Of a DNA stretch of 58,162 bases, positions 29,734 through 50,761 are shown in pieces. The notes beneath the pieces were generated by a model. That model worked only from the letters and a program-made list of their open reading frames with translations. It did not search any database and had not been told where the DNA came from. The position numbers and the translations under genes were made by a program. Origin of the DNA: Acidobacteriaceae bacterium (GTDB lineage: Bacteria > Acidobacteriota > Terriglobia > Terriglobales > Acidobacteriaceae). How positions within the stretch are numbered: position 1 is the first letter of the stretch; each line of letters starts with the position of its first letter. The DNA lies in contig PLHP01000200.1 of assembly GCA_003138955.1 (NCBI GenBank), positions 1 to 58,162 on the forward strand, written 5' to 3'.

Positions 29734-29736
29734 AGA

Positions 29737-29779: not shown

Positions 29780-29810
29780 CCTGTGACCTTCTGATATTAG
29801 GAGCGAAGTC

Positions 29811-30737: not shown

Positions 30738-30793
30738 AGATTTCATTTCGCAGCATTAACCAGGAACGAGAAAGAGGAAACAGAGAAACGATT

Positions 30794-31861: not shown

Positions 31862-31953
31862 GGAACCTGGGTTGCGGGCGTTGTCTGCGTAAGGGACAAC
31901 GTCTGTTTCCCTCAATAAAATCTGAGGCTGCTTTAGCCTACGGGCAAACGTCG

Positions 31954-33009: not shown

Positions 33010-33042
33010 GAAACGGTGAAGTAGGCGTGTGTCGAGGAGGAT

Positions 33043-34249: not shown

Positions 34250-34370
34250 AATCGGGGTCTGAGATCTGGCTGAATGAGGCCGCTCGGGCGCAAATCACAA
34301 GGATGTGTGATCAATATCACTGCACCGAGTGAGCGTCTGGGCGACCTTAGGATCTTGCGTGGAGGTCCAC

Positions 34371-36881
34371 ATGGGAGTGGCACAATCGGTCCCGGTCGAA
34401 TCCAACTGGATACCAAGCACCTGCGGCATGTGTCTGCATGGCTGCGGAATCCTGGTACAGGTTCGTGATGGAGTCGCGCTCAAGATCGAAGGCGATCCGT
34501 CTAACCCCGACAATCTAGGCAAGCTGTGTCCCAAGGGCAATGCCGGGCTGTCGCGCTTGTACGATCCCACGCGTGTGCTCAAGCCCATGAAGCGGACGAA
34601 TCCGCAAAAAGGACCCGGCATCGATCCGAAATGGGTGGAGATCTCGTGGGACGAAGCCTACGGCATCGTCGCCCAGGAACTGGGCAAGGTGCGGGCCGAT
34701 GATCCACGCAAGCTGCTCTGCGCTATCGGCGACTTCCAGAGGATTCTTCTGTGGGGCTGGCCGGCAGCGTTCGGTTCGCCGAACTTCTTTACCTCGCTGG
34801 GGAATTACTGTGGTGGTTCTTACCATCCGGTGAATGGCAGCGTCGATGGCTCGTTCGCCGCTATCAACGACTATGACCTGTGCAACTACTGGATCCAGAT
34901 TGGCTCCGGCGACGGATTTTCCTCGCACCTGCACCTTGCAGGCAGTGCCAAGCGGATGGCCGACGCGCGCATGCGCGGCATGAGGGTCGTGAGTCTCGAC
35001 CCGCGCTGCTCAATCGCGTCGGCGAAGGCCGATGAGTGGATTCCCGCCCTGCCGGGCACGGATCGGGCTTTTGTGCTGGGCATGGCCCACGTGCTGATCC
35101 ACGAACTAAAACGTTACGACCGGGAATTTCTGCGCGATCGGACGAACGCTCCGTATCTGGTAAAGAATGACGGCCACCATCTGCGCTCTGCGGACGGTAA
35201 GGCGATGGCATGGGACCTGAAGCTGGGGGCCGCACGCCCGTGGGATGAAGTCGCGGCGGGAAACATGGCGCTGGAGGGAACATTCACTGTGGACAACGCC
35301 AGCGTCCGCACTGGCTTCCAGGTGTGGACGGATCTTTTGGCAGATCACACGCCGGAGCGGATGTCCCAAGTGAGCACGGTTCCGGCCGGCACGATCCGCC
35401 GTATCGCGAAGGAATTCGTGGATGCGGCACAGATCGGCGCCACCATCGAAATCCAGGGAAAGACTTATCCGTTCCGCCCCGCCGCCCTGAATTACTACCG
35501 CGGCTCGCAGTCGCATTCCAACGGCTTGTTCGACAACCTGACGTTCAAGATGATCAATATGCTGGTGGGCAACATCGACGTGCCCGGCGGCCATCTCGGC
35601 GTGCCGCTGGATCATCGCGGCTTCTTCGTGCATCCCGGCGAGGATGGCATGTTGAAGCCGGAGCCGCACCAGTTGCACCCAGCTCCGCCGTTCAAATATC
35701 CGCCCGACTCGACCCACCTGATGGAGTGGTTTCCCATAGGGTTCGACGCCGGGCAGCTCAACACCGAGACCCTCCTCGACCCGAAGAAGTTCGGCCTGAA
35801 TTACGAGCCCGAAGCCGTACTGCTCTACCACTCGAATCCATTGTGGAACCTGCCGGAAACCGACAAGGTCGAAAAGATCATGGCGAAAATGAAGTTTGTC
35901 GTCGCCATTGACATTCAGCACACGGAGTCGACGCAGTGGGCGGACGTATTCCTGCCGGCCCACACCTTCCTCGAGTCTTACTTGCTCAATTGCCTCGAGC
36001 CCCCCGCGGTCACCGGCCACTCGCTGCGGCAGCCGGTCGTCGAACCTGTGGGAGATACGCGCGACGCCTACGATATCCTCACCGAACTGGCGGAGCGGAT
36101 GGGCTTCCGGGATGACTGGAATGACGTCCTGAACATGGTCTGCGGTTATACCGCACAGCCGAAGTATCTCCTCGATTCGGAAAAGCGTTACAGCGTCGAG
36201 GAGTTTTGGGACCAGTACGCGCGCAGCGTCTACGGCGATGAAAAAGGACTGGACTGGTTCAAGGAGCACGGGCACGCGGTGCGCTACCGCACTCCGGAAG
36301 AAACCTACATGCCCTATGGCGACCTGCGCATCCCGTTTTATTTTGAGTTCATCCTGCGAACGGGAGAGGACATGCGGCGCAACTTTACCGAGGTGGGATT
36401 GAAAGACTGGCCGCTCGATAACTACCAGCCCTTGCCGTTCTGGAAAAACTCGCAGGTGATCGAGGACGAGAAGGCGGGCTACGAATACTTCGCGATTACC
36501 TTCAAGGAGGGCCTGCACACTTTCGCCGACACGATGGTGATGCCCTGGCTCTCCGAGGTGAGCGAGAAAGACTCCGTCCATGGCGGCGTTTTGATCAACT
36601 CCCTGACCGCGAGAAAGCTGGGATTGAAGACCGGAGACCGCATTCGCCTGACTTCGCCGGCCGGAAGCATCGAGGGGTTTGCGCAGGTGATCGAAGGCAT
36701 TCATCCGCAGGTGTTCGGAGTCAGCAACACCCTGACGCGGTACGTCGTAACCAACGACCGGGCGAAGGAACGCGGTACGCACTTCAACCGGCTGCTGACG
36801 GGATCGATGCGCTATACCGACAGCGCCACGGGTGGGCTGGAATCGACGGCGCGGGTCCGAGTGGAATGGGTTCGAGCCTAG
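34371..36881 (+). CDS. Molybdopterin (bis-MGD) oxidoreductase catalytic subunit, DMSO-reductase family, no Tat signal
   Basis: The ATG at 34371 follows GGAGG. The N-terminal C-x2-C-x3-C-x27-C [4Fe-4S] motif reads CGMCLHGCG...LCPKG. At 836 aa, its length and composition are typical of Psr/Phs/Soe-type A subunits. No RR motif exists in the only 14 possible upstream codons. Confidence 0.85.
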   Translation: MGVAQSVPVESNWIPSTCGMCLHGCGILVQVRDGVALKIEGDPSNPDNLGKLCPKGNAGLSRLYDPTRVLKPMKRTNPQKGPGIDPKWVEISWDEAYGIVAQELGKVRADDPRKLLCAIGDFQRILLWGWPAAFGSPNFFTSLGNYCGGSYHPVNGSVDGSFAAINDYDLCNYWIQIGSGDGFSSHLHLAGSAKRMADARMRGMRVVSLDPRCSIASAKADEWIPALPGTDRAFVLGMAHVLIHELKRYDREFLRDRTNAPYLVKNDGHHLRSADGKAMAWDLKLGAARPWDEVAAGNMALEGTFTVDNASVRTGFQVWTDLLADHTPERMSQVSTVPAGTIRRIAKEFVDAAQIGATIEIQGKTYPFRPAALNYYRGSQSHSNGLFDNLTFKMINMLVGNIDVPGGHLGVPLDHRGFFVHPGEDGMLKPEPHQLHPAPPFKYPPDSTHLMEWFPIGFDAGQLNTETLLDPKKFGLNYEPEAVLLYHSNPLWNLPETDKVEKIMAKMKFVVAIDIQHTESTQWADVFLPAHTFLESYLLNCLEPPAVTGHSLRQPVVEPVGDTRDAYDILTELAERMGFRDDWNDVLNMVCGYTAQPKYLLDSEKRYSVEEFWDQYARSVYGDEKGLDWFKEHGHAVRYRTPEETYMPYGDLRIPFYFEFILRTGEDMRRNFTEVGLKDWPLDNYQPLPFWKNSQVIEDEKAGYEYFAITFKEGLHTFADTMVMPWLSEVSEKDSVHGGVLINSLTARKLGLKTGDRIRLTSPAGSIEGFAQVIEGIHPQVFGVSNTLTRYVVTNDRAKERGTHFNRLLTGSMRYTDSATGGLESTARVRVEWVRA

Positions 36882-36889
36882 GGGGAAGC

Positions 36890-37183
36890 ATGACGAGCGC
36901 AAAGATTGCGGCACTGGGGACGACGCGCAAGATGCTGGGATTCAGCCGGCGGACGGTGGAGGTCGAGTTTGACAATGCCACGGTCGCCGATGTCCTGCGC
37001 CAGTTGCCGACCCTGGACGGGCGCACCCTCTATGACAACCTGGTTTGCGACGGACGGTTACGCGGCGATTTCGCGGTGGTGGTAGATGGTCTGAGTTTGA
37101 AAGCGGATCAGTTGAACAGGCGCCTGCAGGGAGGCGAGGAGGTCGTCACCATGGCGATCTTGCGCCACCTGCACGGCGGCTGA
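36890..37183 (+). CDS. MoaD/ThiS-like beta-grasp protein with a C-terminal Gly-Gly
   Basis: 97 aa, with the ATG following GGGGGA. The layout matches MoaD: ...TVEVEFDNATVADVLRQL......L.......L...FAVVVDG.......L..GEEVV........GG*. It ends LHGG immediately before the stop. Confidence 0.6.
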   Translation: MTSAKIAALGTTRKMLGFSRRTVEVEFDNATVADVLRQLPTLDGRTLYDNLVCDGRLRGDFAVVVDGLSLKADQLNRRLQGGEEVVTMAILRHLHGG

Positions 37184-37193
37184 CGGAGCGCCC

Positions 37194-37805
37194 ATGGCTA
37201 GATACGGAATGGTGATCGACCTGAAGCGGTGCATCGGCTGCAATTCGTGCACCCTCGCCTGCAAGCAGGAAAACGGTACACCCGAGGGCGTGCACTTTGC
37301 CCGGGTAGTGACGCGCGAAGTGGGGACCTACCCCGCAACCAAGCGAACCTTCCTGCCCGTGCTTTGCAATCACTGCTCGGACGCGCCTTGTGCGGAAGCC
37401 TGTCCCACCGGTGCCACCTACATCCGTGCGGATGGAATTGTGATGGTGGATAAGGGAAAGTGCATCGGCTGCCGCGCCTGCAACGTGGCTTGTCCATACA
37501 TGAACCGTCACTTTGTCGCGAAAGGCCTGCTCACGGGCTACGGCACGGACGGCCTAACGCCGTATGAAGCGATCAAGTTCCTGGACTTTGAAGAAGGCAC
37601 CAATATCAAGTGCACGCTGTGCGCGCCTCGCGTGGACCAGGGTCTGGAACCAGCGTGCGTCATAACTTGCCCAACGGATGCTCGCGTCTTTGGCGATGTG
37701 GAGGATCCAAACGGCAAGCTGCAGCGCCTAGTCAAAGATCGGAAGGGCTGGACCTTGTCGCCCGAGTACAACACAAAGCCCAACGTGTGGTACCTGGACG
37801 AATAG
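37194..37805 (+). CDS. Four-cluster [4Fe-4S] ferredoxin-type electron-transfer subunit (PsrB/DmsB/SoeB-like)
   Basis: Four Cys groups are present: CIGCNSCTLAC, CNHCSDAPCAEACP, CIGCRACNVACP and CTLC...ACVITCP. Confidence 0.9.
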   Translation: MARYGMVIDLKRCIGCNSCTLACKQENGTPEGVHFARVVTREVGTYPATKRTFLPVLCNHCSDAPCAEACPTGATYIRADGIVMVDKGKCIGCRACNVACPYMNRHFVAKGLLTGYGTDGLTPYEAIKFLDFEEGTNIKCTLCAPRVDQGLEPACVITCPTDARVFGDVEDPNGKLQRLVKDRKGWTLSPEYNTKPNVWYLDE

Positions 37806-37836
37806 TGAGATCCGGCGCAGGAAGCAGGGAGAGACA

Positions 37837-38742
37837 GTGACCACACAAAGTGTTGGAATTGCGAACCACCGTTTCGCGTTCGGGTACTACCGCCAAACGT
37901 TCTGGAACTGGCTGATCGGCACCGCTTTCTTCCTCGGCGGTCTGGGCGCGGGATTGTTTGTCCTGGCGTTGCTCACCGATCACACGGCCGGGATGCTGGT
38001 CGGGTACCTGATCGTAGTCGTCGGCAAAAACACCGCGCACTTGCTTTTTCTCGGCCGGCCGGAGCGTTTCTGGCGGGCGGCGATGCGTCCCGACCGCTCA
38101 TGGATCGCGCGTGGCATCTGGGCCATGGGATTGTTTGCGGTGAGTGGCCTGATTCTGCTCTTACCTCGCGTGCTGGGGCCCGCATGGCAACTCTCCGGCT
38201 GGCTGAACGGCGCGGCCACGGCGGTTGCGGTTCTGTCGGCGGTCGTCATCATGTTCTACGATGGGTTCGTCATGAACTCTTCCCCGGGAGTTGCTTTCTG
38301 GCGGACGCGCCTGCTCCCGCTCCTGCTCCTGATGTATGCAACTTTGGGTGGCGCCACGTTGTCGCTGACGATTCGCGAACTCCGGGGAGAGGCAATTCCA
38401 GGCTTTCTTCCCACGCTCGAACACGGATTGCTGGTGGTGAATTTTGTCCTGCTCGCAGTCTACCTGGCGCGCATGAACCGCTCGTTACCCGCCGCGCGCG
38501 AGACTCTGCGCCAGTGGTTGAGCGGGCCATATGCACGCGTGTTCTTTGGACTGGTTCTGCTGGTCGGACTATTGGCTACTCTGCTGCTCTCGGTGGTTCA
38601 GAGTCACGTGCAGGCGACCGGGCTCGTTTTACTCATTGCCGCCTGTGAACTAACCGGCGATTTCACTTTGGTGATGGTCTTGCTGAAGTCCGGTTTGTTT
38701 CCGCGGCAGACTGCGCTCGCGTACAGCGCCCGCGGCATCTGA
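37837..38742 (+). CDS. NrfD/PsrC-type polytopic membrane anchor subunit
   Basis: 301 aa with about 8 TM helices. W.WLIGTAFFLGGLGAG and LGRPERFWRA..RP.RSWIARG are NrfD/DmsC-family hallmarks. GTG start after GGGAGAG. Confidence 0.8.
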   Translation: MTTQSVGIANHRFAFGYYRQTFWNWLIGTAFFLGGLGAGLFVLALLTDHTAGMLVGYLIVVVGKNTAHLLFLGRPERFWRAAMRPDRSWIARGIWAMGLFAVSGLILLLPRVLGPAWQLSGWLNGAATAVAVLSAVVIMFYDGFVMNSSPGVAFWRTRLLPLLLLMYATLGGATLSLTIRELRGEAIPGFLPTLEHGLLVVNFVLLAVYLARMNRSLPAARETLRQWLSGPYARVFFGLVLLVGLLATLLLSVVQSHVQATGLVLLIAACELTGDFTLVMVLLKSGLFPRQTALAYSARGI

Positions 38743-38787: not shown

Positions 38788-39996
38788 ATGAGCAAACATG
38801 CTCGCCTGTGCTATTTCGATCACGCCTCCTTAGGACGGCCTGGCCGCAAGACCATCGAGCGGGTATGGAAGGAAGTCGCCCGCGCAAGCCAATTCGCCAC
38901 CAGCGGGACGCTTGAGACGCTTCGGCAGTTCAAGGCTGTTGACGATGCCCGGCGCCGGATCGCGCGTTTCGTTCACGCCGATCTGGAAAGTGTTCTGCTG
39001 GTCGGGAACACAACGCAGGCGCTGGGCATGATTGCAACTGCACTGCCCCTGCATCGAGATGACAACGTCCTGATTGCGGACGTCGAATTCATGGGAGTAA
39101 CGGTAGTGTGGCGGAACATCTGCCGCCGCCTTGGCGTTGAGTTGGTGCCGGTCCCCAGCACGGGAGGGCAGCTTGCCGCCGAACATTTTTCGCGGTTCGC
39201 CAATTCCCGGACCAGGGCCATCGTCATCAGTACCGTGCAGGAAGTGAGCGGGTGCCGGGCCGATGTCGAGACGATTCGCGAAGTGGCGTCAAGAAGCGGC
39301 GCCTTTCTGATCGTCGATGGCATTCAGGAAGTGGGTGCGGTCCCGGTTTTCTTCAAAGAACTCGGTGTAGATGCCTACTGCGCGGGCGGGCACAAGTGGA
39401 TGCGGAGCCCGTTTGGAACGGGATTTGCCTGTCTGAGCCAGCGGCTGCTTGAGGTGCTCGACCCCAGCTACCATGGATATCTGGCGCTGGCCGAACCGGA
39501 GATGGGTTGGGATCGCTACATGGGACTAACGTCACGTTCACCGTTTGACCTGTTACCGCTACGGCAGGATGCTGTTCGCCTGGAAACCGGAGGGTTCCCG
39601 AACTGGCTCGGAGCCGCTGCTCTAGATACAGCGGCGAGTGAACTCGAATCCAAAGGACAGACACGCGTGTGGGCCCGAATCCGGCGCTTAAGGAAACGCC
39701 TGGTTGCGGGACTTAGCGAAATGGGAGTTGAGATACTTGGCGGGGTCGACGTTCCCGAGAGGACACAGTCGGGAATTGTTACGTTTCATCTGTTAGGTGG
39801 TGCGGGACAAGAAAGACTGCTTGGCCGGCGCCTGAGTGAGGAACATATCCAAGTTTCGTTGCGATATGTTTCAGGAATAGGAGGGGTCCGTGTGGCGGTT
39901 CACGAGAGTAACAACGCGGACGAAGTAGATTACCTTCTCGATGTTGTGCGCTCCTTCTTGCGCGGTGCAGCATACAAGATAGGCTCGCACGCTTAA
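38788..39996 (+). CDS. Class-V aminotransferase-fold PLP enzyme (paralogue 1)
   Basis: 402 aa. GGHKWMRSPFGTGF supplies the PLP-lysine motif, and the C-terminal VRVAVH..N is class-V like. Confidence 0.8.
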   Translation: MSKHARLCYFDHASLGRPGRKTIERVWKEVARASQFATSGTLETLRQFKAVDDARRRIARFVHADLESVLLVGNTTQALGMIATALPLHRDDNVLIADVEFMGVTVVWRNICRRLGVELVPVPSTGGQLAAEHFSRFANSRTRAIVISTVQEVSGCRADVETIREVASRSGAFLIVDGIQEVGAVPVFFKELGVDAYCAGGHKWMRSPFGTGFACLSQRLLEVLDPSYHGYLALAEPEMGWDRYMGLTSRSPFDLLPLRQDAVRLETGGFPNWLGAAALDTAASELESKGQTRVWARIRRLRKRLVAGLSEMGVEILGGVDVPERTQSGIVTFHLLGGAGQERLLGRRLSEEHIQVSLRYVSGIGGVRVAVHESNNADEVDYLLDVVRSFLRGAAYKIGSHA

Positions 39997-40063
39997 GTAG
40001 CGATAAGAGACCATTCAATCGACATTTTCTTTTTTACTCCAAAACAGAAGCTTCGGAGCCGCT

Positions 40064-41500
40064 CTAGTTGCGCTGAACCTTCCAATACACAAGACTGATT
40101 CCGGCCAGCAAAGCCGCAAAGATCGGAACTGAATAGCGCAGGCCCTCCACATAAAAAGTGCTGCACCCGATGGCAACGAGAAATAAGATGCCCATGATGC
40201 TGGAGACCGGAAACAGCCGGAGCCGTAACGGCAAATCGTTTACCTTGGCACCGATGGAGCGGCGAAACCGCAGGTGAGCCAGGAGGATAACGATCCACAC
40301 AAAGTACATTCCCGCGACTGCGGAACCGTACATGAGGAGAAATGCGCCTTTGGGAACGTAAATGGCCAGTAAAATCGCAAGTACCATTCCTAAACTTGAA
40401 ACAGCTAGCGCCCGATGCGGCACCCCGTTCCGGCCCAAACGCCCCAAGGGCTCAGGCGCATAGTGTCCTCGCGCCAGAGAGAAGAGCATCCTGGTGGTAA
40501 GGTAGAGGTCGGTGTTCGCGCTGGAAAGTGCCGCCGTGATCACAACCAGATTCATGATCGCGGCCGCGTAAGGAATGCCAATTGCTGCGAAGACGCGTAC
40601 GAATGGACTGCCGCTGATGGTCCCGTCACCGATCTGGTTCCAGGGAGACACGGTGACCATCACGGTCATCGCCAGAACATAGAACAGGATCAGACGGAAA
40701 ACCATCGTGCGCATGGCGCGCGGGATCGCTTTTTCCGGCCGCTCTGCCTCTCCCGCCGTGACTGCAATCACCTCGACCCCCATGTAACTCGAAATGGTGA
40801 GAGTAAAGGCCAGCCACACGCCAAGATACCCATGAGGCAGGAAGCCGCCATAGGCGACGAGATTTCGAAATCCCACCGCCGGACGGGGGGACAAGCCGGT
40901 GATCAGCGCGATCCCAATCAATATGAAAACGATGATCGCGACCACCTTCACAAAGGCGAACCAATACTCGAATTCTCCAAAATTGCCAACCTGCGCGGCA
41001 TTGATGGCTACAAGTCCAACGGAAACCAGGGCGACCCAAAGCCACTGCGGCGTTCCCGGAAACCAATACCGAAAATAAATGGCCACTGCTGTAACCTCGG
41101 CGCCAATGGCCACCATCTGGACCAGTCCGTAAGTCGCACGCACGGTGAAGCCGAACCACGGACTCAGGTAGCGCTCGGCATAGATACCAAACGCGCCGGC
41201 TACCGGATGGACCACCGCCATCTCAGCCACTGCGTAAGCTACGATCAGGGCCAGAATCGCCCCAAGAAGATAATTAAGAATGACCGCCGGCCCGGCAAGG
41301 TCAATGGTTACGCTACTGCCCAGGAAAAGACCGACTCCAATGGCGCCGCCAATGGCGATCATGGAGATCTGGCGCTCGGTCAATCTCCGCTGCAAATTCT
41401 GCGCCGAGGGCGTCGAGTCGAGGGCTTGCTCGCCTGCAGGGTCCGCGATTGTCACCGTGACCTTCCGCCTTCTTGCTTCGTCGCCGGACGCAGCAGACAT
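40064..41500 (-). CDS. APC-superfamily amino acid permease
   Basis: 478 aa with about 12 TM helices. The N-terminal L.RRLTERQISMIAIGGAIGVGLFLGSS signature matches amino-acid permeases of the AroP/GabP/LysP type. Confidence 0.85.
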   Translation of the reverse strand: MSAASGDEARRRKVTVTIADPAGEQALDSTPSAQNLQRRLTERQISMIAIGGAIGVGLFLGSSVTIDLAGPAVILNYLLGAILALIVAYAVAEMAVVHPVAGAFGIYAERYLSPWFGFTVRATYGLVQMVAIGAEVTAVAIYFRYWFPGTPQWLWVALVSVGLVAINAAQVGNFGEFEYWFAFVKVVAIIVFILIGIALITGLSPRPAVGFRNLVAYGGFLPHGYLGVWLAFTLTISSYMGVEVIAVTAGEAERPEKAIPRAMRTMVFRLILFYVLAMTVMVTVSPWNQIGDGTISGSPFVRVFAAIGIPYAAAIMNLVVITAALSSANTDLYLTTRMLFSLARGHYAPEPLGRLGRNGVPHRALAVSSLGMVLAILLAIYVPKGAFLLMYGSAVAGMYFVWIVILLAHLRFRRSIGAKVNDLPLRLRLFPVSSIMGILFLVAIGCSTFYVEGLRYSVPIFAALLAGISLVYWKVQRN

Positions 41501-41515
41501 GACATGTTGTGCAAA

Positions 41516-42784
41516 CTAATTGCCAGCGATCTCCTCCAATGCGTTGACGAACCTGCGGATCTCATCCTGCGTGTTGTAGTGCACCAGCGAGGCTCGCACC
41601 GCGCCGCCCTCGCTCAATACTAGCCGTTTCATCAGCCTCGGCGAATACATATTGCCATCCCGCACTGCGATCCCCTTGGCGGCCAGCCTGGCTGCTACCG
41701 TAGCGGGTGGAACGCCCGCAAGATTGAACAAGAACGTCGGCAGCCGTTGCGCAATAGCCTTCGGGTCTTGTATGCCGTACACTGTTGCTCCCTTGATTGC
41801 GCCGATACCCGCCAGTAGCGCGCCGGACAGGCAACGTTCATACTGGCATATTGCCTCCATCGCCCTCACCAGGCGTTGACGATGCGAACTCGAGCCATCT
41901 TTTCTGTCTCCGTCACACAGATCTCCGAGTTCCGCCAAGTATTCAATCGCCGCATTCATACCCACAACATTCTCGTAAACGAACGTTCCCACCTCAATTT
42001 TTGAGGGCGGAGTATTCGGAATGAAGTCTTCGCGGAAGGTTGGCAGAGCCTCGAGGGCCGCGCGGCGGCCCCACAAGAAGCCCATGTGTGGAGCGAAGAT
42101 CTTGTAGCCGGAGCAGACCAGATAATCGCATCCCCAGGCCCTGACGTCGATGGGGCCGTGGGGCGCGTATTGCACGGCATCGAGGAAAACCTCGGCGCCC
42201 GCGGCATGGGCTCTCCTCGCCACCTCGGCCACATCTATGATCGTTCCTAAAGCATTCGACGCTACCGTACAGGCTACCAGCCGCGTCCGGGAAGAGAGCA
42301 GCGGCTCCAGGTCGGCCACACGCAGAGTGCCGTCGTCAGCTACGTTCCACCACCGGATGACCGCGCCTTCACGCTCCAGGGCCAGCCAGGTTGCGACGTT
42401 GGCCTCATGATCGAGATCGGTCACGATGATTTCGCGCCGCTCTGCCAGAGTCTGCCCAATGGCGAGGCTTACCAAGCGCATGAAGGACGTGGCATTCATA
42501 CCGAATGCAATCTCATCGGGATCGGCCGCGTTCAGAAAAACTGCCACTGATTTCCGGGCTTGGGCGATCGCGGCATCCACTTCCTGGCTTTCCCGGTAGC
42601 AACCGCCTCGCTGCACGCTTCGCGTGAGCAGGTGGTCGGCAACCGCGTCCAGGGCTTTCTGGGGGATTTGGGCTCCCGCGGCATTATCGAAGAACATGGA
42701 GCTCCCTGGCCGATTCAACGCAGGAAACATCTGCCGCACGCGATCTACGGGGAATTCCGCCAGGTTGGCCGCTCTTTCACGCAT
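41516..42784 (-). CDS. Cysteine-desulfurase-like class-V PLP enzyme (paralogue 2, no catalytic Cys at the SufS position)
   Basis: FDNAAGAQ.P, DHEANV and SGYKIFAPH.GFLWG (PLP Lys) are present. The segment aligned with SufS GIAVRTGHHCAMPL reads GIAVRDGNMYSPRL. Confidence 0.75.
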   Translation of the reverse strand: MRERAANLAEFPVDRVRQMFPALNRPGSSMFFDNAAGAQIPQKALDAVADHLLTRSVQRGGCYRESQEVDAAIAQARKSVAVFLNAADPDEIAFGMNATSFMRLVSLAIGQTLAERREIIVTDLDHEANVATWLALEREGAVIRWWNVADDGTLRVADLEPLLSSRTRLVACTVASNALGTIIDVAEVARRAHAAGAEVFLDAVQYAPHGPIDVRAWGCDYLVCSGYKIFAPHMGFLWGRRAALEALPTFREDFIPNTPPSKIEVGTFVYENVVGMNAAIEYLAELGDLCDGDRKDGSSSHRQRLVRAMEAICQYERCLSGALLAGIGAIKGATVYGIQDPKAIAQRLPTFLFNLAGVPPATVAARLAAKGIAVRDGNMYSPRLMKRLVLSEGGAVRASLVHYNTQDEIRRFVNALEEIAGN

Positions 42785-42816
42785 AGATCACCTCAACAAA
42801 GAATTCCGCGCGCATT

Positions 42817-44058
42817 CTAATTCTGCCTGGTGGCTTTCGCGGCAACCCGTCCGTTGCTCTTGCGCGGTACAGCCGACTCGATGGCTTCGAGCAGCCGGTC
42901 GATGTCGGCGGTATTGTTGAAAAAATGACAGGAGACTCGCACCCCGCCTACATTCGATGTATAGCGCACCGAAACTAAAATCTTCAGCTCGAGGAGCTTC
43001 TCCATCAGTCGGATGTTTTCTGCCGCAGAGCCAACGCTGAAGGTCACGATCCCGGAACGATGCTTGCGCGCGACCGGCGTCACGATCTCAATGCCGAGAG
43101 CTTGTAGTCCTTCGATGAGGTGATCGGTCAAGGCGTAGGTGTGCTCGGCGATGCGGTCCTGGCCGAGAGACTGAATCATTTTCAGCGCAGCCGCTAATCC
43201 GATGCCTCCGGCGTAATTTGCCGTCCCGCCGATCTCGTAAACCCGCGCGCCTTTCGTGAATTCATAATCCATGACCGGCCGAATCGATGGTGTCTGGAAA
43301 TGGGCTCCCCATCCACCTTGCGGCGGCTCCACGTTCATGTAACCAGTAAGAGGCGGCAGCAACTTTCGCAACGCCTCCCGCCGGATGTACAAAAAGCCCA
43401 TGCCAAACGGAGAAGTGAGCCACTTATGTCCGCCGCAGGCAAGAAAGTCCACCGGCGTCTTTTGCACATCGAGGGGAATTGCGCCGAGCTGCTGGATCGC
43501 ATCCACGACAAGCCAAACTTCCTTTTCAGCGCAAAGAGAACTGAGTTTCTCGAGATCGCATCGGAAGCCATTACTCCACTGCACCGTACTAATGCAGACG
43601 ACTCTTGTCTTCGATGTCAAGCGCTCTGCAATGTTCTGTACTCTCACTTCCCCGTTCTGGTTGGGGACAACATCGATGCTAATGCCCCGTGCCGCCAGTT
43701 GGATCCAAGGTACGGCTACTTCCAGAAACTCCAAATCGGATATAAGGACGCGGTCGCCAGGCGAAAGAGGAATCGATTGGGCGGCGATGCTGAGCCCGTG
43801 ACTGGTGCTTTCCACCAAGGCGATCTCATCTTCGTCCGCATTGATCAGGCGCGCGGCTTCCGGCCGGGCGAGAGCGCGCATTTCATCCATCGAGATGTGA
43901 TGCAGAGTGGACGATCGCGCCGGGCAAAGCAGCGTCATGTCGAGAAAATTTCGGATCGCTTCGGTGGCCACACGAGGGGCAAGGCTTACGCACGCGGCAT
44001 CCAGGAACGTCTTGTGTAGAAGCGCGGGAAATTGTTCGCGAGCGTCCTCAAAATCCAT
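42817..44058 (-). CDS. Class-V aminotransferase-fold PLP enzyme (paralogue 3)
   Basis: It carries the GGHKWLTSPFGMGFLYIRR PLP-lysine motif. The start lies 1 nt after the stop of paralogue 4. Confidence 0.8.
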   Translation of the reverse strand: MDFEDAREQFPALLHKTFLDAACVSLAPRVATEAIRNFLDMTLLCPARSSTLHHISMDEMRALARPEAARLINADEDEIALVESTSHGLSIAAQSIPLSPGDRVLISDLEFLEVAVPWIQLAARGISIDVVPNQNGEVRVQNIAERLTSKTRVVCISTVQWSNGFRCDLEKLSSLCAEKEVWLVVDAIQQLGAIPLDVQKTPVDFLACGGHKWLTSPFGMGFLYIRREALRKLLPPLTGYMNVEPPQGGWGAHFQTPSIRPVMDYEFTKGARVYEIGGTANYAGGIGLAAALKMIQSLGQDRIAEHTYALTDHLIEGLQALGIEIVTPVARKHRSGIVTFSVGSAAENIRLMEKLLELKILVSVRYTSNVGGVRVSCHFFNNTADIDRLLEAIESAVPRKSNGRVAAKATRQN

Positions 44059-44059
44059 T

Positions 44060-45226
44060 TCAGTCGCCGCTCACAGCGGCCGTGCCGGTGACCAGCAGGT
44101 CGAGATTCTGTTCTAACACCTGGAGGACTGCCCGTACATCCTCGAGAGTATTGTAGACATGGAAAGAAAGGCGCAGCCCATCGTGGCGGCTGGAACACAC
44201 GATCCCGTTGGCCGCCAGTTTTTCGACCAATCGGGCGGCGTCCTTGCATTGGAAAACGACGAGCGGTCCCACGCTTGTGGTTGGTGTTTTGGCAATCAGG
44301 CCCAGTTTCTGCGCCCCCTTTAAAAGTGCGCTTGTCAGTTCGTGGATCTGCCAGGATACGTTGTCTAGTCCGATCTCCTGCAATAACTCAATGCCCCGCA
44401 TGGCTGCATAGATATTGGGCACGGCAGGAGATCCTTCTTCAAACCTGCGCGCCGAAGGAGCGGGATCGAAACATTTCACGTCGAAGGCGAAAGGATTGCG
44501 TTGCGCAAACCAGCCTGTAATCGTGGGCTGGAGAGATGCGATCAGCTCCTTGCGGACATACAAAAATGCCAAGCCGGGTGGTCCCAACAGGTACTTCAGC
44601 GTTCCCGTTACATAGAAGTCGACGTCCGCAGTTCGAACGTTCACCGGCCGAGTGCCACAGTCCTGGTAATCATCCAGCATAACCAGCGCGCCATTGGCGT
44701 GCGCAAGCGGAACGACTTCGCGGACTGCCGAGCGGAAGCCATTCATGAAGCAAACTCCGGTCAGGGGAACGATGAGAGTTTGGCGGTCGATCGCGCGCTC
44801 GTAATTTTCCGTCGGAATCGAATTGCCCACCGCGCTGACAAACTCGACTTGAGCTCCGCGCTTCTGCTGGGCCAGCCAAACATGGCCCATGGTCGGAAAC
44901 TCGAATTCGCCCATTACCACTTTCCTCCGGCGATCAAACGTCAAAGCGCTGGCAATCGAGTTCATGCCAGCCGATGCACAGGGGACGATGGCAACTTCAT
45001 CGGCGGTGGCGCCGATAAAACCGGCGAACTGCGACCGTGCTGCCTCATATCTCTCCACCCAAATATCCCACGGTGAACCATGCTCATGCCAGCTCGCCAC
45101 GTACTCACGAAGACCGTTCTCCACGGCGTCCGATAGCGCTCCTTGCGAGCAACTGTTCAGATAGATCTTGTTCCGGAGGAGGGGGAATCGCGATCGAATC
45201 GCTTGTAACTCGGGGCTGCTTAGCAT
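44060..45226 (-). CDS. Class-V aminotransferase-fold PLP enzyme (paralogue 4)
   Basis: N-terminal FPLL.NKIYLNSCSQGALS, TGTLKYLLGPPGLAFLYVRK (PLP Lys) and C-terminal LRLSFHVYNT.EDV are present. Confidence 0.8.
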   Translation of the reverse strand: MLSSPELQAIRSRFPLLRNKIYLNSCSQGALSDAVENGLREYVASWHEHGSPWDIWVERYEAARSQFAGFIGATADEVAIVPCASAGMNSIASALTFDRRRKVVMGEFEFPTMGHVWLAQQKRGAQVEFVSAVGNSIPTENYERAIDRQTLIVPLTGVCFMNGFRSAVREVVPLAHANGALVMLDDYQDCGTRPVNVRTADVDFYVTGTLKYLLGPPGLAFLYVRKELIASLQPTITGWFAQRNPFAFDVKCFDPAPSARRFEEGSPAVPNIYAAMRGIELLQEIGLDNVSWQIHELTSALLKGAQKLGLIAKTPTTSVGPLVVFQCKDAARLVEKLAANGIVCSSRHDGLRLSFHVYNTLEDVRAVLQVLEQNLDLLVTGTAAVSGD

Positions 45227-45321: not shown

Positions 45322-48300
45322 TCAAAAAACCAATTTCATATTGAGCTGAAACTGGCGCTGGGCGCCCTCCCCGAAGTGCGAGTCGTTGTTCACAACGTCG
45401 GCTGTTCCCGAAACGTACTCCGCTCCTAAACTCGACGCAGGATTGCCAAAATTGGTGTGATTGAGGAAGTTGAAGCCGTCGGCCCGGAATTGCAGCTTCA
45501 CCCGCTCGCTGATCGGAAACCACTTTGCGACCGAGAAATCCCACTGAGTAAGCCACGGTGCCGGAAGACTGTTGCGCGCGCAATTCCCGAAAGTTCCAGG
45601 ATTTGGTTCGGCATAGCCGCTCACGACGTAAGGTATTTTGAAGTTCTTGAGCTGCGTCACCAAAGGACCCACGCAATTCGGCACGTCGTGCAGTTCGCCC
45701 GTACCGCTGATATCGTCATACGTCAGAACCGGAAGGTACATGGAATCGTGCCAACTGACAACGCCTGACAACTGCCACTGATTCACGAGGTACCCCATCC
45801 CTTTGCTGTGCGTGAACGACGGGAATTGGTAAACGTAAGAGGCAGAGATAGCTTGCGGCACGTCAAATTCGGAGTTGGCTCGATTGAGCCCTGGATTCAG
45901 GGAATCTTTCGGCACAAATCCACTGGTGCCGAAGAAGTCCATGGTTTCGGACGCGTCGTCGATCGCGTGCGCCCAAGTGTAAGCGAACTCGGTCGTCAGG
46001 CCGTGATAATTTTTGGTCTTCAGCTGAACTTGCAGCGAGTTGTAACTCGAGTTGTTGGTCGAGTTGATGGTGTTGATCTGTCCGAACTGCGGGTATTGGC
46101 TGTAGTAGGGACGGTTCACTTGTTCGTTCGCGAAGCTGCCAGGGGGAGGCATGTTCACGTCCGGCAAACTGTAGATGTGCGTGCCTTTGGAACCGACATA
46201 GCCGATCTGCAAAACCATGGCCGCCATCAGCTCTTGCTCCACGTTCAGGTTCCAGCTCTGTACGTACGGAGACTTGAGGTTTGGATTTACCGCGATCAGG
46301 TTGAGAATCGACCCTGGTACCACGCTCGTGCTCGTCCCGAAGATCGGAACATTGGGCTGGATCGCAGCTGTGGGGTCCAGAAGCGAGTTTGAATAACTGC
46401 CCAGGCCGTTGATCGGATTCGTGGCGAGACCCGGATTGCTGTTGGTGAGGTTATACGACTGGCCGACCAGCACGTCCAGCGGGCTATCCACATAGTACAT
46501 GCCGTAGCCGGCTCGGACCACGGTGTGGAGGCCGTGGTAGGTAAAAGGTGAATACGCAAACGCAACCCGCGGAGAGAAATTCTTATACACGGTATGGTAG
46601 ATATCGCCGTGTACTGGAACAAGTCCCTGGCTCGGGAAGAAATTCGAGAAGCGCCCGCGGTCTTCCTGCGGAACCCCGAAGAAATCCCAGCGCAGGCCCG
46701 CAATGAGTGTGAGTTTGGGTGTCAACTGGTAGGTATCGTTGGCATACAGGCCGACGACATTCTGATGGATGTCGAAACGCGTGCTGCCGCGCGATATGTT
46801 TGTCGAATTCGGGTCAGGAAGCCCAGCCAGCAGATCGGCAAGGGCCTCAAGCCTGGATATGGCGGGAGATGAGGGGGTTGTGTTAGGGAAAAGAGTGTTC
46901 CCGACCTGACTTCCATCAAACGTGAGCAATCCACGAAAGTTGTCGTCGTTGAAGCCAAACACTTTGTTCAGTTCCCAATTCGCACCGAACTGAAGGCTAT
47001 GCTTCCCACGGTTGATCGCCGCGTCGTCGTTCCACTGGAACGTCTCGCTGGTCCGCGCTCTTGGCCAACTCGGGTTGATGCCTAGATTCTCGAAAACACT
47101 GGAGCCTAGATCGATTTCGGGCAGGCCGTAGTTTTCAGGACTTGTGCCGGTATCCAGCCCGATGGAAGCCGGATTAAATGTGCTGTCCGCCCCGAGGAAC
47201 CCGAGATGAACGTGGTTGTAAGAGAGGCGGAAGACGTTGATCAGACTGGGCGAGAAAGTATGCGATTCGCTGATGGCCAGGTTCTGCGGCCGGATAGGCG
47301 TGACTCCGTAGTATTGCGGCAGTTGCGAGCCTCCGCCAGGTGAATCGGAGCCCTGCGGAAAGTTGTCTTTTCCGTTGCCAAACAGATAGCGGGCTGCCAA
47401 CTGATCGCTATTCCCCAAACGTTGATCGATCTTGACGGAAAAGTTGTCTGGTGTCTGGCTGCCTACGCCGCTGATGGCGAACTGGCCGGAATAGGGTTGA
47501 TACAGTTTCAGAATCGCCAAGCCGAGGGCGTTCGGTGCCTGCGGGGCCAAAGCGGCCTCCACCTGCTGGATCTCTGCCGTGCTGGGCGCGAAAGCAATAC
47601 CCGAACTCCCCAAACGGCTGCGGCTGCCATCGTAGGCAACAAAGAAGAACGTCTTGTTCTTAACGATCGGGCCTCCCAAGCTGCCGCCATATTCATTCCA
47701 AATGAAATGCGCCTTCGGAGCCCCGAGGAGATTCTCGAAATAGTTGTGCGCGGTAAGCGAAGCATCGCGATGGTATTCATAAAGCGAACCGTGAAACGCG
47801 TTGGTTCCACTTTTGAGGACGATGTTGATCGCCCCCGCGCCCGCTTCCGCATCCGCGGCACCCTCGGTGACGACGCTCATTTCCTGAATCCCGTCGGGTG
47901 GCACCCGCGTGGCCGCGGTGTAGGAATTTCCGCCCTGGTTCATGGCAGGCAATTGCCGGTAGGCATCCATGTTTTGCGAGCCGTCAATATTGAAGCTCAC
48001 GGAGCGGCTGGGCGCACCATTGATCGCGATCTGGGTAAAGGTGTAGCCCGTGGCCGTCGAGGTGCCCGGCAAGAGAAACGCGAAGCGAGTGTAGTCGTTG
48101 TTGCCCATGGGCAATTCGGTTACCTCCTGCTCCGTGATGTTGCCGCCGACGGTATCGGTCTGAGTCTCGAGGATCGGCGCTGCGGCACTGACCTCAACCC
48201 GCACCTCGACCCTTCCGGGTACGAGCGTCACGGGGATTTCGTTCACCTGGTTCAAATTCGTGATGATGTTGGTCTGTCTGTAGGACTTGAAACCGTCTTT

Positions 48301-48570
48301 CGTGACGGTCAGTTGGAAGGTTGCCAGCGGCAACTCCTGGAAGCGAAACACGCCGTTGCTGTCGGTTTTCACGGCACGTTCCAGGCCGATGTCGGTCGCG
48401 GAAAGCACTACCTGAGCACCCTCGACGGCTCCGCCCGAACTGTCGAGCACGGTGCCGGTGATGCGGCCGGGAAATATCTGGGCGTGCGAACTTCCCTCAA
48501 AAACAAGGACCAAACAAAGAGCAAGCGACATGAAGAGGATTAAGCGCACACGAAACATAAACGCCCCCAT
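45322..48570 (-). CDS. TonB-dependent receptor with a carboxypeptidase-regulatory-like domain (second copy)
   Basis: It has a signal peptide (MFRVRLILFMSLALCLVLVFEGSSHAQ), a CarboxypepD_reg-like segment (GRITGTVLDSSGGAVEGAQVVLSATDIGL.R...TDSNGVFRFQELPLATFQLTV) and a large barrel ending NMKLVF. The start is ambiguous (48558, 48570 or 48603). Confidence 0.85.
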   Translation of the reverse strand: MGAFMFRVRLILFMSLALCLVLVFEGSSHAQIFPGRITGTVLDSSGGAVEGAQVVLSATDIGLERAVKTDSNGVFRFQELPLATFQLTVTKDGFKSYRQTNIITNLNQVNEIPVTLVPGRVEVRVEVSAAAPILETQTDTVGGNITEQEVTELPMGNNDYTRFAFLLPGTSTATGYTFTQIAINGAPSRSVSFNIDGSQNMDAYRQLPAMNQGGNSYTAATRVPPDGIQEMSVVTEGAADAEAGAGAINIVLKSGTNAFHGSLYEYHRDASLTAHNYFENLLGAPKAHFIWNEYGGSLGGPIVKNKTFFFVAYDGSRSRLGSSGIAFAPSTAEIQQVEAALAPQAPNALGLAILKLYQPYSGQFAISGVGSQTPDNFSVKIDQRLGNSDQLAARYLFGNGKDNFPQGSDSPGGGSQLPQYYGVTPIRPQNLAISESHTFSPSLINVFRLSYNHVHLGFLGADSTFNPASIGLDTGTSPENYGLPEIDLGSSVFENLGINPSWPRARTSETFQWNDDAAINRGKHSLQFGANWELNKVFGFNDDNFRGLLTFDGSQVGNTLFPNTTPSSPAISRLEALADLLAGLPDPNSTNISRGSTRFDIHQNVVGLYANDTYQLTPKLTLIAGLRWDFFGVPQEDRGRFSNFFPSQGLVPVHGDIYHTVYKNFSPRVAFAYSPFTYHGLHTVVRAGYGMYYVDSPLDVLVGQSYNLTNSNPGLATNPINGLGSYSNSLLDPTAAIQPNVPIFGTSTSVVPGSILNLIAVNPNLKSPYVQSWNLNVEQELMAAMVLQIGYVGSKGTHIYSLPDVNMPPPGSFANEQVNRPYYSQYPQFGQINTINSTNNSSYNSLQVQLKTKNYHGLTTEFAYTWAHAIDDASETMDFFGTSGFVPKDSLNPGLNRANSEFDVPQAISASYVYQFPSFTHSKGMGYLVNQWQLSGVVSWHDSMYLPVLTYDDISGTGELHDVPNCVGPLVTQLKNFKIPYVVSGYAEPNPGTFGNCARNSLPAPWLTQWDFSVAKWFPISERVKLQFRADGFNFLNHTNFGNPASSLGAEYVSGTADVVNNDSHFGEGAQRQFQLNMKLVF

Positions 48571-48690
48571 AGAGACGATGATTAGATTGGCTCTGCCCGG
48601 CATAGCTCTCCTCCGAACTCCGCTGTGAGTTCGCGACTGGAGTCACCCTGCCAAGCATCCGCTGGCTTCGCAGTTTCACACAGGGAATGG

Positions 48691-48723
48691 TGACATGTCA
48701 AGGAAAATCTTGTGGTATACAAG
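48691..48723. promoter_or_regulatory. Two palindromes in the divergent receptor/gntR promoter (candidate GntR operator)
   Basis: A perfect 10-bp palindrome, tgacatgtca, lies at 48691-48700. cttgt-ggtat-acaag (5-bp arms, 5-bp spacer) lies at 48709-48723 and fits the GntR-family GT-N(x)-AC operator logic. Confidence 0.5.
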
Positions 48724-48833
48724 TGATATGCAATACAGGAAGCTCGCAAATTCTGCGATATGCTGCTACCCTCCGTCGCCCCCATAATGAAGTGAGAAAG
48801 AAAGAATGAAAGAATGAAGAGAGGGGAGGATGG

Positions 48834-49589
48834 ATGACCAAGCTCAGGGAAGTAAGGCGCGTGCGAACCTCGCGGCAGCAGCCTGTCAGCGCACCTCGGG
48901 CCGGCACACCGCGGCACGCAACGGCAAAGCCTCCCGAGGACTCACTAAGTGAGCAAGTTTATCAGTCGTTAAAGCGGGACATCGTCACTGGGATACACCC
49001 GCCGGGCGAAGCACTGAGTGAGAAGGATCTCGCCCGGAGATACAACAGCAGCCGCACGCCGGTGCGCGAGGCCGCCGTCCGGCTGCAACAGGACAACTTG
49101 CTGCGTGTGGTCCCCAATCGGGGGTACTTCGTCACCAAGATATCGGTACAGGATTTGACTCAGTTGTACGAGTACCGCACGGCGGTGGAGTGTGCTTGCG
49201 CGGAGCTGGCTGCGGCGAAGGGTATGAATCCCGAACTGATGGAAAGCCTGGAGAGATTGGCCCAAACGGAATACAAGATCGACGACCGGAAAAGCTACAT
49301 TCATTTCATTACGGCAGACACGGCCTTTCACATCGGCATCGCACAATTGGCGCGAAACCAGCTCCTGCTGCGGGCGGTCGAAACGGTCCGCTGCCAAATG
49401 GAGCGGATCATGTATGCCGCAATTGACATCGGGTACTACGGAGAGCTGCCGGTTCGCGAGCACTGCGAAATCCTGGACGCAATCAACAACCGCGATCCAC
49501 AGCGAGCACGCCAGTTGATGTATGGCCACATCTTTGGCTCAAGGGACAAGGTTCTTCGGATCGCCGGCGGCGCCCCCGGGCAGTTTTGA
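48834..49589 (+). CDS. GntR-family transcriptional regulator (FCD-type), second copy
   Basis: A winged-HTH (VYQSLKRDIVTGIHPPGEALSEKDLARRYNSSRTPVREAAVRLQQDNLL) is followed by an FCD-like helical domain. Confidence 0.85.
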   Translation: MTKLREVRRVRTSRQQPVSAPRAGTPRHATAKPPEDSLSEQVYQSLKRDIVTGIHPPGEALSEKDLARRYNSSRTPVREAAVRLQQDNLLRVVPNRGYFVTKISVQDLTQLYEYRTAVECACAELAAAKGMNPELMESLERLAQTEYKIDDRKSYIHFITADTAFHIGIAQLARNQLLLRAVETVRCQMERIMYAAIDIGYYGELPVREHCEILDAINNRDPQRARQLMYGHIFGSRDKVLRIAGGAPGQF

Positions 49590-49951: not shown

Positions 49952-50761
49952 ATGCGTTCTGCAACGTTGGTGTTAGTGGCTGCGTTTGCGACGGTGGCGC
50001 CAGTGGTGGCGCAAGCACAGACTATGGCGGCGCCGGGGGATTGGCTTCATGGAATCGCGACCGGGAAAAATGCGGTGGTCGACATGACGTACCCGGTGAA
50101 CGAGAAATTTCCGGCATGGCCGGGGGATGACCACGTGTTCGAGGCGAAAGTGAGTGCGACGGTGGAGAAGGACGGATACTTCATGCGTAGTTTCTGGATG
50201 CTAGAGCACTATGGAACGCACATGGACGCGCCGGCACATTTTCCGCCGGGGAAGATTACGCTCGATGAAATTCCAGACACGCATTTTTTCGGGCCGGCGG
50301 TTGTGATCGACGTTCGCGAAGAGGCGGCCAGGGATGCGGATTACCGGCTGACGGTTGTGCGGGTTAAAAAGTGGGAAGCGGAGCACGGGCAGATTCCGAA
50401 GGGCGCGATCGCGGTGTTGCGAACGGGATGGGGTTCGCGTGTTCCCGATGTGGCGCGCTACCGGAATATGGACGCGAACCAGGTGATGCACTTTCCGGGG
50501 TATTCGGTGGACTCTGCGAAGCTGCTGATCGAGCGCGGCGTGGTGGGGCTGGGGATCGATACGCTGAGCATCGACTACGGCGCGTCGAAAGACTTCGAAG
50601 TGCATCGTGTGGAGCTGCCCGCAGGACTCTACAACCTTGAAAACCTGGCGAACACAGAGTCACTGCCAGAATGGGGCGCGTATTTGATCGCGGCTCCGAT
50701 CAAGCTCGCAGGCGGGTCGGGCGGCCCGGTCCGTGTGTTCGCGGTGCTGCCTCCGAAGTGA
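49952..50761 (+). CDS. Secreted cyclase-family protein (kynurenine/aryl formamidase-like)
   Basis: It has a Sec-type signal peptide (MRSATLVLVAAFATVAPVVAQAQ) and the HYGTHMDAPAHF motif (HxGTHxDxPxH) of the putative-cyclase/KynB family. Confidence 0.8.
   Translation: MRSATLVLVAAFATVAPVVAQAQTMAAPGDWLHGIATGKNAVVDMTYPVNEKFPAWPGDDHVFEAKVSATVEKDGYFMRSFWMLEHYGTHMDAPAHFPPGKITLDEIPDTHFFGPAVVIDVREEAARDADYRLTVVRVKKWEAEHGQIPKGAIAVLRTGWGSRVPDVARYRNMDANQVMHFPGYSVDSAKLLIERGVVGLGIDTLSIDYGASKDFEVHRVELPAGLYNLENLANTESLPEWGAYLIAAPIKLAGGSGGPVRVFAVLPPK

Follow-up and report, generated by a model that had tools for sequence, protein, structure and literature searches.

The 58,162-nucleotide contig PLHP01000200.1 of an Acidobacteriaceae bacterium (assembly GCA_003138955.1), hereafter the window, contains four intact genes for class-V pyridoxal 5′-phosphate (PLP) enzymes of the Aminotran_5 family. 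These genes, labelled A to D (Table 1), are packed into 6.4 kb together with a gene for an APC-family amino-acid permease. Our analysis favours, with a probability of roughly 0.55, a regulated locus for the uptake and catabolism of one or more substituted, non-standard amino acids, and not for the mobilisation of sulfur into Fe-S clusters. The new result is a module conserved in Terriglobia, formed by B, D and the permease and extended by a BBE-type oxidase, a thiamine diphosphate (TPP) enzyme and a cyclase-family hydrolase. No published description of this module was found in the literature on the VC1184 family, on cysteine-less desulfurase-like enzymes or on kynureninase-like hydrolases. Open reading frames (ORFs) of the window were assigned using a Pfam profile scan and NCBIfam models with their curated cut-offs. 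An earlier reading of the DNA made from its letters (the sequence-only reading) had placed the four ORFs at the same coordinates and on the same strands, and the Pfam matches agreed with its description of a permease and an upstream TonB-dependent receptor (TBDR).

Gene neighbourhoods were compared by scanning one genome per species with D, which gave 194 relatives. The best 80 loci were used, almost all from metagenome-assembled genomes (MAGs) of Acidobacteriota (Terriglobia). Window and accessory proteins were located by tblastn within ±10 kb of D, and the counts are lower bounds, as several contigs were short. The permease was found near D in 76 of the 80 loci and B in 69. A FAD_binding_4/BBE oxidase was present in 60, a cyclase-family hydrolase in 48, and a split TPP decarboxylase, resembling sulfopyruvate and phosphonopyruvate decarboxylases, in 47. 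Counts were far lower for the GntR regulator (13/80), the TBDR (10/80, only with the window-type arrangement), C (4/80), A (2/80) and the molybdenum (Mo) subunit encoded upstream of A (1/80). Unsupervised clustering of all ORFs returned the same seven families, then GntR (13 loci); every further family was confined to at most 8 of the 80. In the common gene order, TPPα, TPPβ and cyclase genes are transcribed divergently from B, D, permease and BBE oxidase genes; in the window-type order, the GntR gene is divergent from TBDR, D, C (where present), B and permease. That B, D and the permease are kept together across two gene orders argues for a functional unit, and their clustering exceeds chance. 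The conserved synteny across relatives also backs the link to an imported amino acid that the sequence-only reading had drawn.

To place the enzymes relative to cysteine desulfurases, A to D were aligned using MAFFT with E. coli SufS, CsdA and IscS (from NC_000913.3). The persulfide cysteines of the references (SufS C364, CsdA C358, IscS C328) shared one column. In B, this column holds Tyr380, and the surrounding sequence reads GIAVRDGNMYSPRL against GIAVRTGHHCAMPL in SufS. In A, C and D the entire loop is deleted, leaving a gap of 11–15 residues, or at least 17 columns once IscS is included. Family alignments were built from 93–121 sequences for A, C and D, and from 70 for B (the window copy and 69 orthologues). 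Within these, no conserved cysteine was found in the loop region of any of the four families, while Tyr380 and Tyr227 were each kept in at least 97% of the 70 B-family sequences. Cysteines conserved elsewhere (C26, C159, C190 and C344 in D; C23, C45, C176, C208 and C377 in C; C172, C219 and C224 in B) do not fall on a SufS- or IscS-type mobile loop. A shared metal or Fe-S site formed by conserved cysteines was considered and dropped, because their positions differ between families (C versus D). The PLP-lysine motifs, GGHKW in A and C, SGYK in B and TGTLKY in D, aligned to SufS K226. These motifs and the loop of B were exactly as quoted in the sequence-only reading, whose claim that all four enzymes lack the SufS-type cysteine was borne out, the alignment against SufS, IscS and CsdA having exposed no catalytic cysteine in A to D.

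The rest of the active site is well preserved. All four enzymes retain the Schiff-base lysine, the aspartate that pairs with the pyridine nitrogen, Gln203 and the α-carboxylate-binding arginine (SufS R379), and they therefore look like active enzymes on α-amino acids. A pseudo-enzyme reading was dropped, as the Lys, Asp and Arg are all retained. The PLP-stacking histidine is present in B (DHEAN), with Phe in its place in A, C and D. The best scores against the SufS-subfamily model were 114–246 bits, compared with a cut-off of 475; the desulfurase equivalog models scored much lower and were all missed. SufE, SufU, CsdE and IscU were absent from the scanned window ORFs and from the called neighbours of the source contig.

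Likeness to SufS and CsdA (type II) and to IscS (type I) thus lies in the class-V fold, with a template-modelling (TM) score of ~0.8 to SufS for the AlphaFold2 (AF2) models of C and D (Foldseek). B, in addition, has a full-length loop and retains SufS Arg359. The differences are the exchange of the persulfide cysteine for Tyr in B and the loss of the loop in A, C and D, the Phe for stacking His in the latter three, and the missing acceptor proteins. Because the cysteine is absent, the equivalog cut-offs are missed and no acceptor family occurs among the scanned ORFs, the alignments support the view that none of A to D is a SufS-, CsdA- or IscS-type desulfurase. Fold searches using the AF2 models of D and C returned SufS, CsdA and C-DES structures, all at TM ~0.8, which confirms the class-V fold for the models and does not separate the subfamilies.

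Pairwise identities were 35% for A and C, 27% for C and D, 26% for A and D, and 21–25% between B and the others; by sequence, A to D are four distinct subfamilies. B passed the TIGR01976 (VC1184) model at 505 bits, relative to a cut-off of 352, with residues 11–416 on model positions 1–401, and the B orthologue at locus L059 scored 522 bits. The best match of B in the PDB was the fungal FGM3 (9x4u, E = 5.7e-57), and UstD (7mkv) matched at E = 2e-46. Fgm3 has been described as a retro-aldolase acting on γ-hydroxy-arginine, the Tyr before the Lys being proposed as base (PMC10055224), and UstD as a decarboxylative aldolase (PMC11976203). B aligns with these proteins over its full length, carries the Tyr-Lys dyad (Tyr227-Lys228; SGYK versus SWYK in Fgm3) and shares an aromatic residue at the former cysteine position (Tyr in B, Phe in Fgm3). 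However, many positions are unmatched in the alignment of B with Fgm3, and the setting of B is an uptake operon rather than a cluster for peptide biosynthesis. The M. tuberculosis TIGR01976 member Rv3778c is regarded as non-catalytic, lacking the Lys (PMC12910592); B, in contrast, keeps it. By sequence, B is closest to the Fgm3/UstD-type Cβ–Cγ lyases, from which we infer its activity.

Residues 6–377 of D aligned with the P. fluorescens kynureninase (KynU, 1qz9; E = 1.4e-21). D has FPT at the PLP-stacking Phe, a KYLLGPPG segment that shares the pattern KYLxGxPG, a GWF motif and a short loop before Arg352, and its match to KYNU_C was sub-threshold (24.8 bits; cut-off 27). It differs from kynureninase in being ~30 residues shorter, in scoring far below the TIGR01814 cut-off (75 bits against 246), and in having Leu210 where the kynureninase sequence YKYLNGGPG (signature YKYLxGGPG) has Tyr before the Lys. 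More than 100 homologues of D were found at 74% identity or above. No tryptophan/kynurenine pathway genes, including the dioxygenase, were detected by ORF clustering among the conserved families of the 80 loci. From its motifs, D would best be described as kynureninase-like.

A and C resemble C-DES, the cystine C-S lyase of Synechocystis (1elq, 1n2t). C aligned with 1elq end to end (residues 8–393, E = 3.6e-29), and A matched it at E = 6.7e-18. For the AF2 model of C, with a predicted local distance difference test (pLDDT) score of 93.5, C-DES gave the best fit: TM normalised to the query (TMq) 0.84–0.85, TM normalised to the target (TMt) 0.90, and root-mean-square deviation 2.4–2.5 Å. Both proteins share with C-DES the HKW motif, a short C-terminal loop free of cysteine, and a Cys beside the Arg-x-x motif. 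Identity to C-DES is ~25%, however, the stacking His of its DCEHPG motif is Phe in A (EFMG) and C (EFLE), and five cysteines particular to family C are almost invariant. Sequence and model together suggest that A and C are C-DES-like.

The four genes also differ in how they are distributed. C-family homologues at 64–72% identity are lone genes in six other contexts, in three of which the gene directly follows mnmG (gidA) on independent contigs (L008 6463–7734, L112 7001–8191, L113 7001–8188); this suggests a stable, possibly housekeeping, position after mnmG outside the operon. C lies inside the operon only in the closest relatives (L015–L017, L095, L100 and L105) and a few kb downstream in L014 and L020. 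C is a highly conserved acidobacterial family, usually lone, which was recruited into the operon only in the closest relatives. In a Terriglobia MAG (L006 5767–9877, and L007), a C homologue and an APC permease gene, whose product is 50% identical to the permease of the window, are transcribed divergently; the C homologue lies 3 kb from a sulfite-oxidase-type enzyme (Oxidored_molyb and Mo-co_dimer) and a redoxin.

A metagenome scan with A gave 14 loci, mostly 88–96% identical, and said little on deep synteny; the homologue search and contig look-ups were more informative. Homologues of A at 59–63% identity (L109–L111) adjoin B-like, permease, TBDR, GntR, D-like and BBE genes; the TBDR stands with A-like, B-like and permease genes in L109 and L110. 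Distant A-type genes thus stand beside the same partners, and A is therefore a mobile accessory of the B/D/permease neighbourhood. A-type genes are followed by a convergent Amidohydro_2 gene (~456 aa) in L097 (9282–10652) and L110 (9210–10586), in otherwise different contexts, and the two may form a functional pair. The sequence-only reading had treated A to D as one set of four paralogues. All are indeed Aminotran_5 proteins, but they are not equivalent: B and D form the conserved core, A is an accessory and C is mostly found alone.

On the minus strand of the window, the genes run in the order TBDR, D, C, B and permease, with the TBDR first and the permease last. The gaps between them are 95, 1, 32 and 15 nt, respectively, and the five genes are therefore a tight operon. 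A and the permease gene are convergent, and A starts 45 nt past NrfD, a gene of the upstream Mo-oxidoreductase operon; the cyclase gene comes after that of the GntR/FCD regulator. The best NCBIfam matches of the permease were all under cut-off (ThrP, 349 bits). An acid-resistance pair of decarboxylase and antiporter was dropped as a candidate, as the permease scored as an AAT-type symporter, with just 33–38 bits to GadC and AdiC.

Table 1. Genes and sites of the locus, by position in the window
Feature	Position	Strand	Size and evidence
A, class-V PLP enzyme, C-DES-like, short C-terminal loop	38788..39996	+	402 aa; Aminotran_5 E = 9e-39
Permease, APC family, AAT type (ThrP/GabP/ProY/AroP-like)	40064..41500	-	478 aa; PF00324 E = 2e-98
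B, TIGR01976 (VC1184) class-V PLP enzyme, Fgm3/UstD-like	41516..42784	-	422 aa; Aminotran_5 E = 1e-70
C, class-V PLP enzyme, C-DES-like, short C-terminal loop	42817..44058	-	413 aa; Aminotran_5 E = 3e-52
D, class-V PLP enzyme, kynureninase-like	44060..45226	-	388 aa; Aminotran_5 E = 6e-41
TBDR, acidobacterial CarboxypepD_reg + OMP_b-brl_4 type	45322..48603	-	OMP_b-brl_4 E = 1e-180
Conserved intergenic block, putative GntR-family operator + TTGACA	48690..48730		seven-locus alignment
GntR/FCD-family regulator, divergent from the operon	48834..49589	+	PF00392 and PF07729
Cyclase-family (PF04199) metal hydrolase, HxGTHxDxPxH motif	49952..50761	+	Pfam E = 8e-42

A candidate control site was identified between the regulator and TBDR genes. 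Alignment of this spacer from seven loci, with D identity down to 79%, revealed an invariant block (Table 1) with constant TGTATAC, AAGATT and TTGACAT columns. The block holds the sequence T(T/G)GTATAC(C/A)A, an imperfect palindrome whose form is that of GntR operators in general, and TTGACA follows ~10 nt past it in the direction of the operon. In other loci with a GntR gene, the palindrome recurs beside that gene and ahead of B or D, and it is likely a GntR-family operator. Orthologues of the regulator occupy the same divergent position in L012, L014–L017 and L019–L021. In the spacer itself, a repeat finder and a strict regular expression gave no inverted repeat or motif, which only the multi-locus alignment brought out, and the promoter and terminator scan was at or near background. 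Peat metatranscriptome contigs span all of 37.8–50.8 kb; one bridges the junction of B and the permease, and another bridges NrfD and A.

Desulfurases, cysteine sulfinate desulfinase, kynureninase and UstD/Fgm3 share a ketimine/enamine route, in which the bond between Cβ and its substituent is broken or formed. Retro-aldol cleavage, hydrolysis that removes a γ-oxo group and β-decarboxylation or desulfination are examples, with L-alanine as the common product. UstD uses L-aspartate, and both Fgm3 and UstD break or form Cβ–Cγ bonds. Under the uptake and catabolism reading, the TBDR would, in this lineage, bring the compound, free or conjugated, through the outer membrane. The window cyclase, with its signal-peptide-like N-terminus and metal motif, could act in the periplasm to free the amino acid from a conjugate, and the AAT-type permease would import the free amino acid to the cytoplasm. 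There, the class-V PLP enzymes would cleave the side chain with no enzyme persulfide of the SufS/IscS type. By analogy with their relatives, B and D would be the conserved catalytic pair, while A and C, by similar analogy, would add β-lyase-type side activities in this lineage. The BBE-type FAD oxidase, encoded after the permease in most genomes, could oxidise a γ-hydroxy to a γ-oxo group for the kynureninase-type enzyme. The GntR/FCD regulator would act on the operon via the conserved palindrome. The data show directly the gene content, the missing Cys loop, the family placements, the synteny, the conserved candidate operator and the occurrence in peat metatranscriptome assemblies; from these we infer the catabolic direction, the reaction types and the order of the steps.

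The occurrence of a BBE oxidase beside kynureninase-like and retro-aldolase-like enzymes suggests, by analogy, that the substrates are amino acids with a γ-hydroxy or γ-oxo group, whereas the TPP enzyme would point to β-anionic three-carbon skeletons. Taken further, the B-D-permease(-BBE oxidase) module may be an undescribed catabolic pathway that is widespread among Terriglobia, in which B and D act in tandem on γ-oxygenated or β-anionic amino acids; this narrower proposal is tentative, and possible rather than probable. If true, alanine would be released together with an aldehyde, acid or oxyanion. Such a pathway would add a new way in which organic nitrogen, and possibly sulfur or phosphorus, is mineralised in acidic peat, and would be a natural bacterial source of biocatalysts that cleave or form Cβ–Cγ bonds.

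Several observations weigh against an uptake and catabolism locus of this kind. D scored higher on the SufS-subfamily model (122 bits) than on that of kynureninase (75 bits) and has Leu in place of the Tyr before the Lys. Its AF2 model is of moderate quality (pLDDT 76), and the fold search was no help in separating subfamilies. The TBDR and the regulator accompany D in just 10 and 13 of the 80 loci, the window contains neither the BBE oxidase nor the TPP enzyme, and C is mostly unlinked elsewhere. The split TPP enzyme, with its resemblance to sulfo- and phosphonopyruvate decarboxylases, would fit a transaminase route at least equally. The RNA contigs are unstranded, low-depth assemblies that may include DNA. 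To our knowledge, no member of the A, B, C or D subfamilies has a measured activity, and we know of none in the bacterial TIGR01976/VC1184 family whose activity is known.

An organosulfur or organoselenium route, the idea of the sequence-only reading, was also considered, in which C-S lyases or desulfinases would act on cystine, cysteine sulfinate, cysteate or the like, and the sulfite or persulfide released would then be oxidised or reduced. The Mo-oxidoreductase operon upstream of A (34329–38742, plus strand) codes for a Mo subunit of the Psr/Phs type that lacks a twin-arginine motif, together with a 4Fe-4S subunit (Fer4_11) and an NrfD-type membrane subunit. From its sequence, the catalytic subunit would face the cytoplasm. 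This layout is compatible with that of the cytoplasmic sulfite dehydrogenase SoeABC, but the best NCBIfam match of the Mo subunit was PhsA, at 277 bits, far under cut-off. Furthermore, A follows NrfD only in contigs with A at least 94% identical. In L097–L099 (A 94%), a phosphoesterase and an Amidohydro_2 gene stand in place of the Mo operon, and the linkage is also absent in L100 (89%) and L109–L111 (59–63%). The coupling of desulfinase chemistry to a SoeABC-like complex, raised in the sequence-only reading, is thus not supported, the linkage of A to the Mo operon being confined to near-identical relatives.

Other evidence for an organosulfur substrate comes from the resemblance of A and C to C-DES, from the sulfopyruvate-decarboxylase-like TPP enzyme divergent from B and D in 47 of the 80 loci, and from the one C homologue near a sulfite-oxidase-type Mo enzyme and a redoxin. 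In addition, many carriers are Ca. Sulfotelmatobacter MAGs, and peat Acidobacteria of this group have been proposed to gain sulfite from organosulfonates (PMC6018796). However, the split TPP enzyme, closest to the α and β subunits of sulfopyruvate decarboxylase, is about as close to phosphonopyruvate decarboxylase and misses both cut-offs. No sulfite-handling or sulfoacetaldehyde-cleaving gene was found among the conserved families of the 80 loci, and the nearest relatives of B and D carry out carbon–carbon, not carbon–sulfur, chemistry. An organosulfur route is unlikely, although sulfur chemistry as such keeps some probability. The sequence-only preference for lyases acting on an imported amino acid over Fe-S desulfurases stood in its non-desulfurase assignment, the lyase relatives and the synteny; its picture of four equal enzymes and the SoeABC link did not.

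A divergent kynurenine-type branch would make the cyclase a formamidase that, with D, turns an N-acylated aryl γ-oxo amino acid into an aromatic acid and alanine. The kynureninase motifs of D would fit this, as would the HxGTHxDxPxH cyclase, which accompanies D in 48 of the 80 loci and in the window adjoins the regulator, and the indolepyruvate-oxidoreductase-like TPP enzyme of L024 and L029. Yet no ring-opening dioxygenase was found among the conserved families of the 80 loci, and the arylformamidase (window cyclase, 75 bits; cut-off 223) and kynureninase equivalog cut-offs were missed by a wide margin. The window cyclase has a signal-peptide-like N-terminus (MRSATLVLVAAFATVAPVVAQAQT) and shares just 41% identity with the cytoplasmic cyclase found in the common arrangement (for example, L059 6634–7410), which is divergent from B and D and lacks such a peptide; its membership of the module is uncertain. 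Since B would also be left unexplained, we consider a kynurenine-type branch quite improbable. In L024 and L029 (~1400–16600), which show a third arrangement, the split decarboxylase gives way to the indolepyruvate-oxidoreductase-α-like TPP enzyme (720 aa), GntR separates D from B and the permease, and a TBDR and an M61 peptidase come after D.

True aminotransferases also occur in class V, and one or more of A to D could make a 2-oxo acid that is then decarboxylated by the TPP enzyme. The TPP 2-oxo-acid decarboxylase of 47 loci and weak matches to PhnW/AepZ and other class-V aminotransferase models are consistent with this. Such models, however, scored far below desulfurase-like ones (for C, 61 versus 156 bits), the TPP enzyme is missing from the window and from 33 of the 80 loci, and, among characterised proteins, those nearest to B, C and D are lyases, so that an aminotransferase role is highly doubtful. 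A chance neighbourhood, or a biosynthetic cluster exporting a γ-substituted amino acid made by UstD-type C–C bond formation, would suit the usually unlinked C, the movement of A between contexts and the biosynthetic fungal relatives of B, but is very improbable given that at least 69 of 80 species-level genomes retain the B-D-permease set, in one or other of two gene orders, and given the lack of conserved nonribosomal peptide synthetase, polyketide synthase or tailoring genes (beyond the seven families listed, none in more than 8 of 80 loci), and the AAT importer-type permease with its window-type partners, a TBDR and a GntR/FCD regulator.

The source annotations label A to D as 'cysteine desulfurase/selenocysteine lyase' or as generic class-V enzymes. 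The desulfurase label is wrong for enzymes lacking the cysteine, and inflates the apparent sulfur-mobilising capacity of peat Acidobacteria. The B-D-permease module occurs in most of the Terriglobia species genomes sampled, and assemblies of peat metatranscriptomes contain its sequence; the module is therefore probably the mark of a genuine nutrient niche, as yet uncharacterised, in a soil phylum that is abundant. Among the fungal relatives of B, enzymes such as UstD already serve as C–C bond-forming biocatalysts; a large bacterial clade with Tyr at the former cysteine position and a kynureninase-like partner provides defined candidates for enzyme discovery. The module is a variant of a familiar type, and its value lies mainly in enzyme discovery and in the correction of annotations.

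Exact matches of the window sequence fall on peat and wood-associated metagenome contigs, and the sequence is present in ~20 peat metagenome runs. The closest genome is an uncultured Acidobacteriaceae MAG (L015), with D 95% identical and identical gene order. Beyond the operon, the window region is rich in uptake functions, with a second TBDR of the same acidobacterial type (15450–18749), a second APC permease (630 aa; 51988–53880) and a BBP2 porin (54470–55906). A long same-strand run of catabolic genes (22516–34249, plus strand) reads as a degradation island. It includes a xanthine-dehydrogenase-family Mo enzyme, two ApbA/PanE reductases, two M24 creatinase/prolidase-like hydrolases, an M20 deacylase, an F420-type luciferase-like oxidoreductase, an FAA hydrolase and an HMGL-like synthase or aldolase. 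Finally, a small ORF of 97–105 aa (36866–37183, plus strand), between the genes of the Mo and 4Fe-4S subunits, has no Pfam match but is conserved in the source contigs, where it is called as a 97-aa gene. Its C-terminus, HLHGG, finishes in Gly-Gly and resembles that of sulfur carriers of the ThiS/MoaD type.

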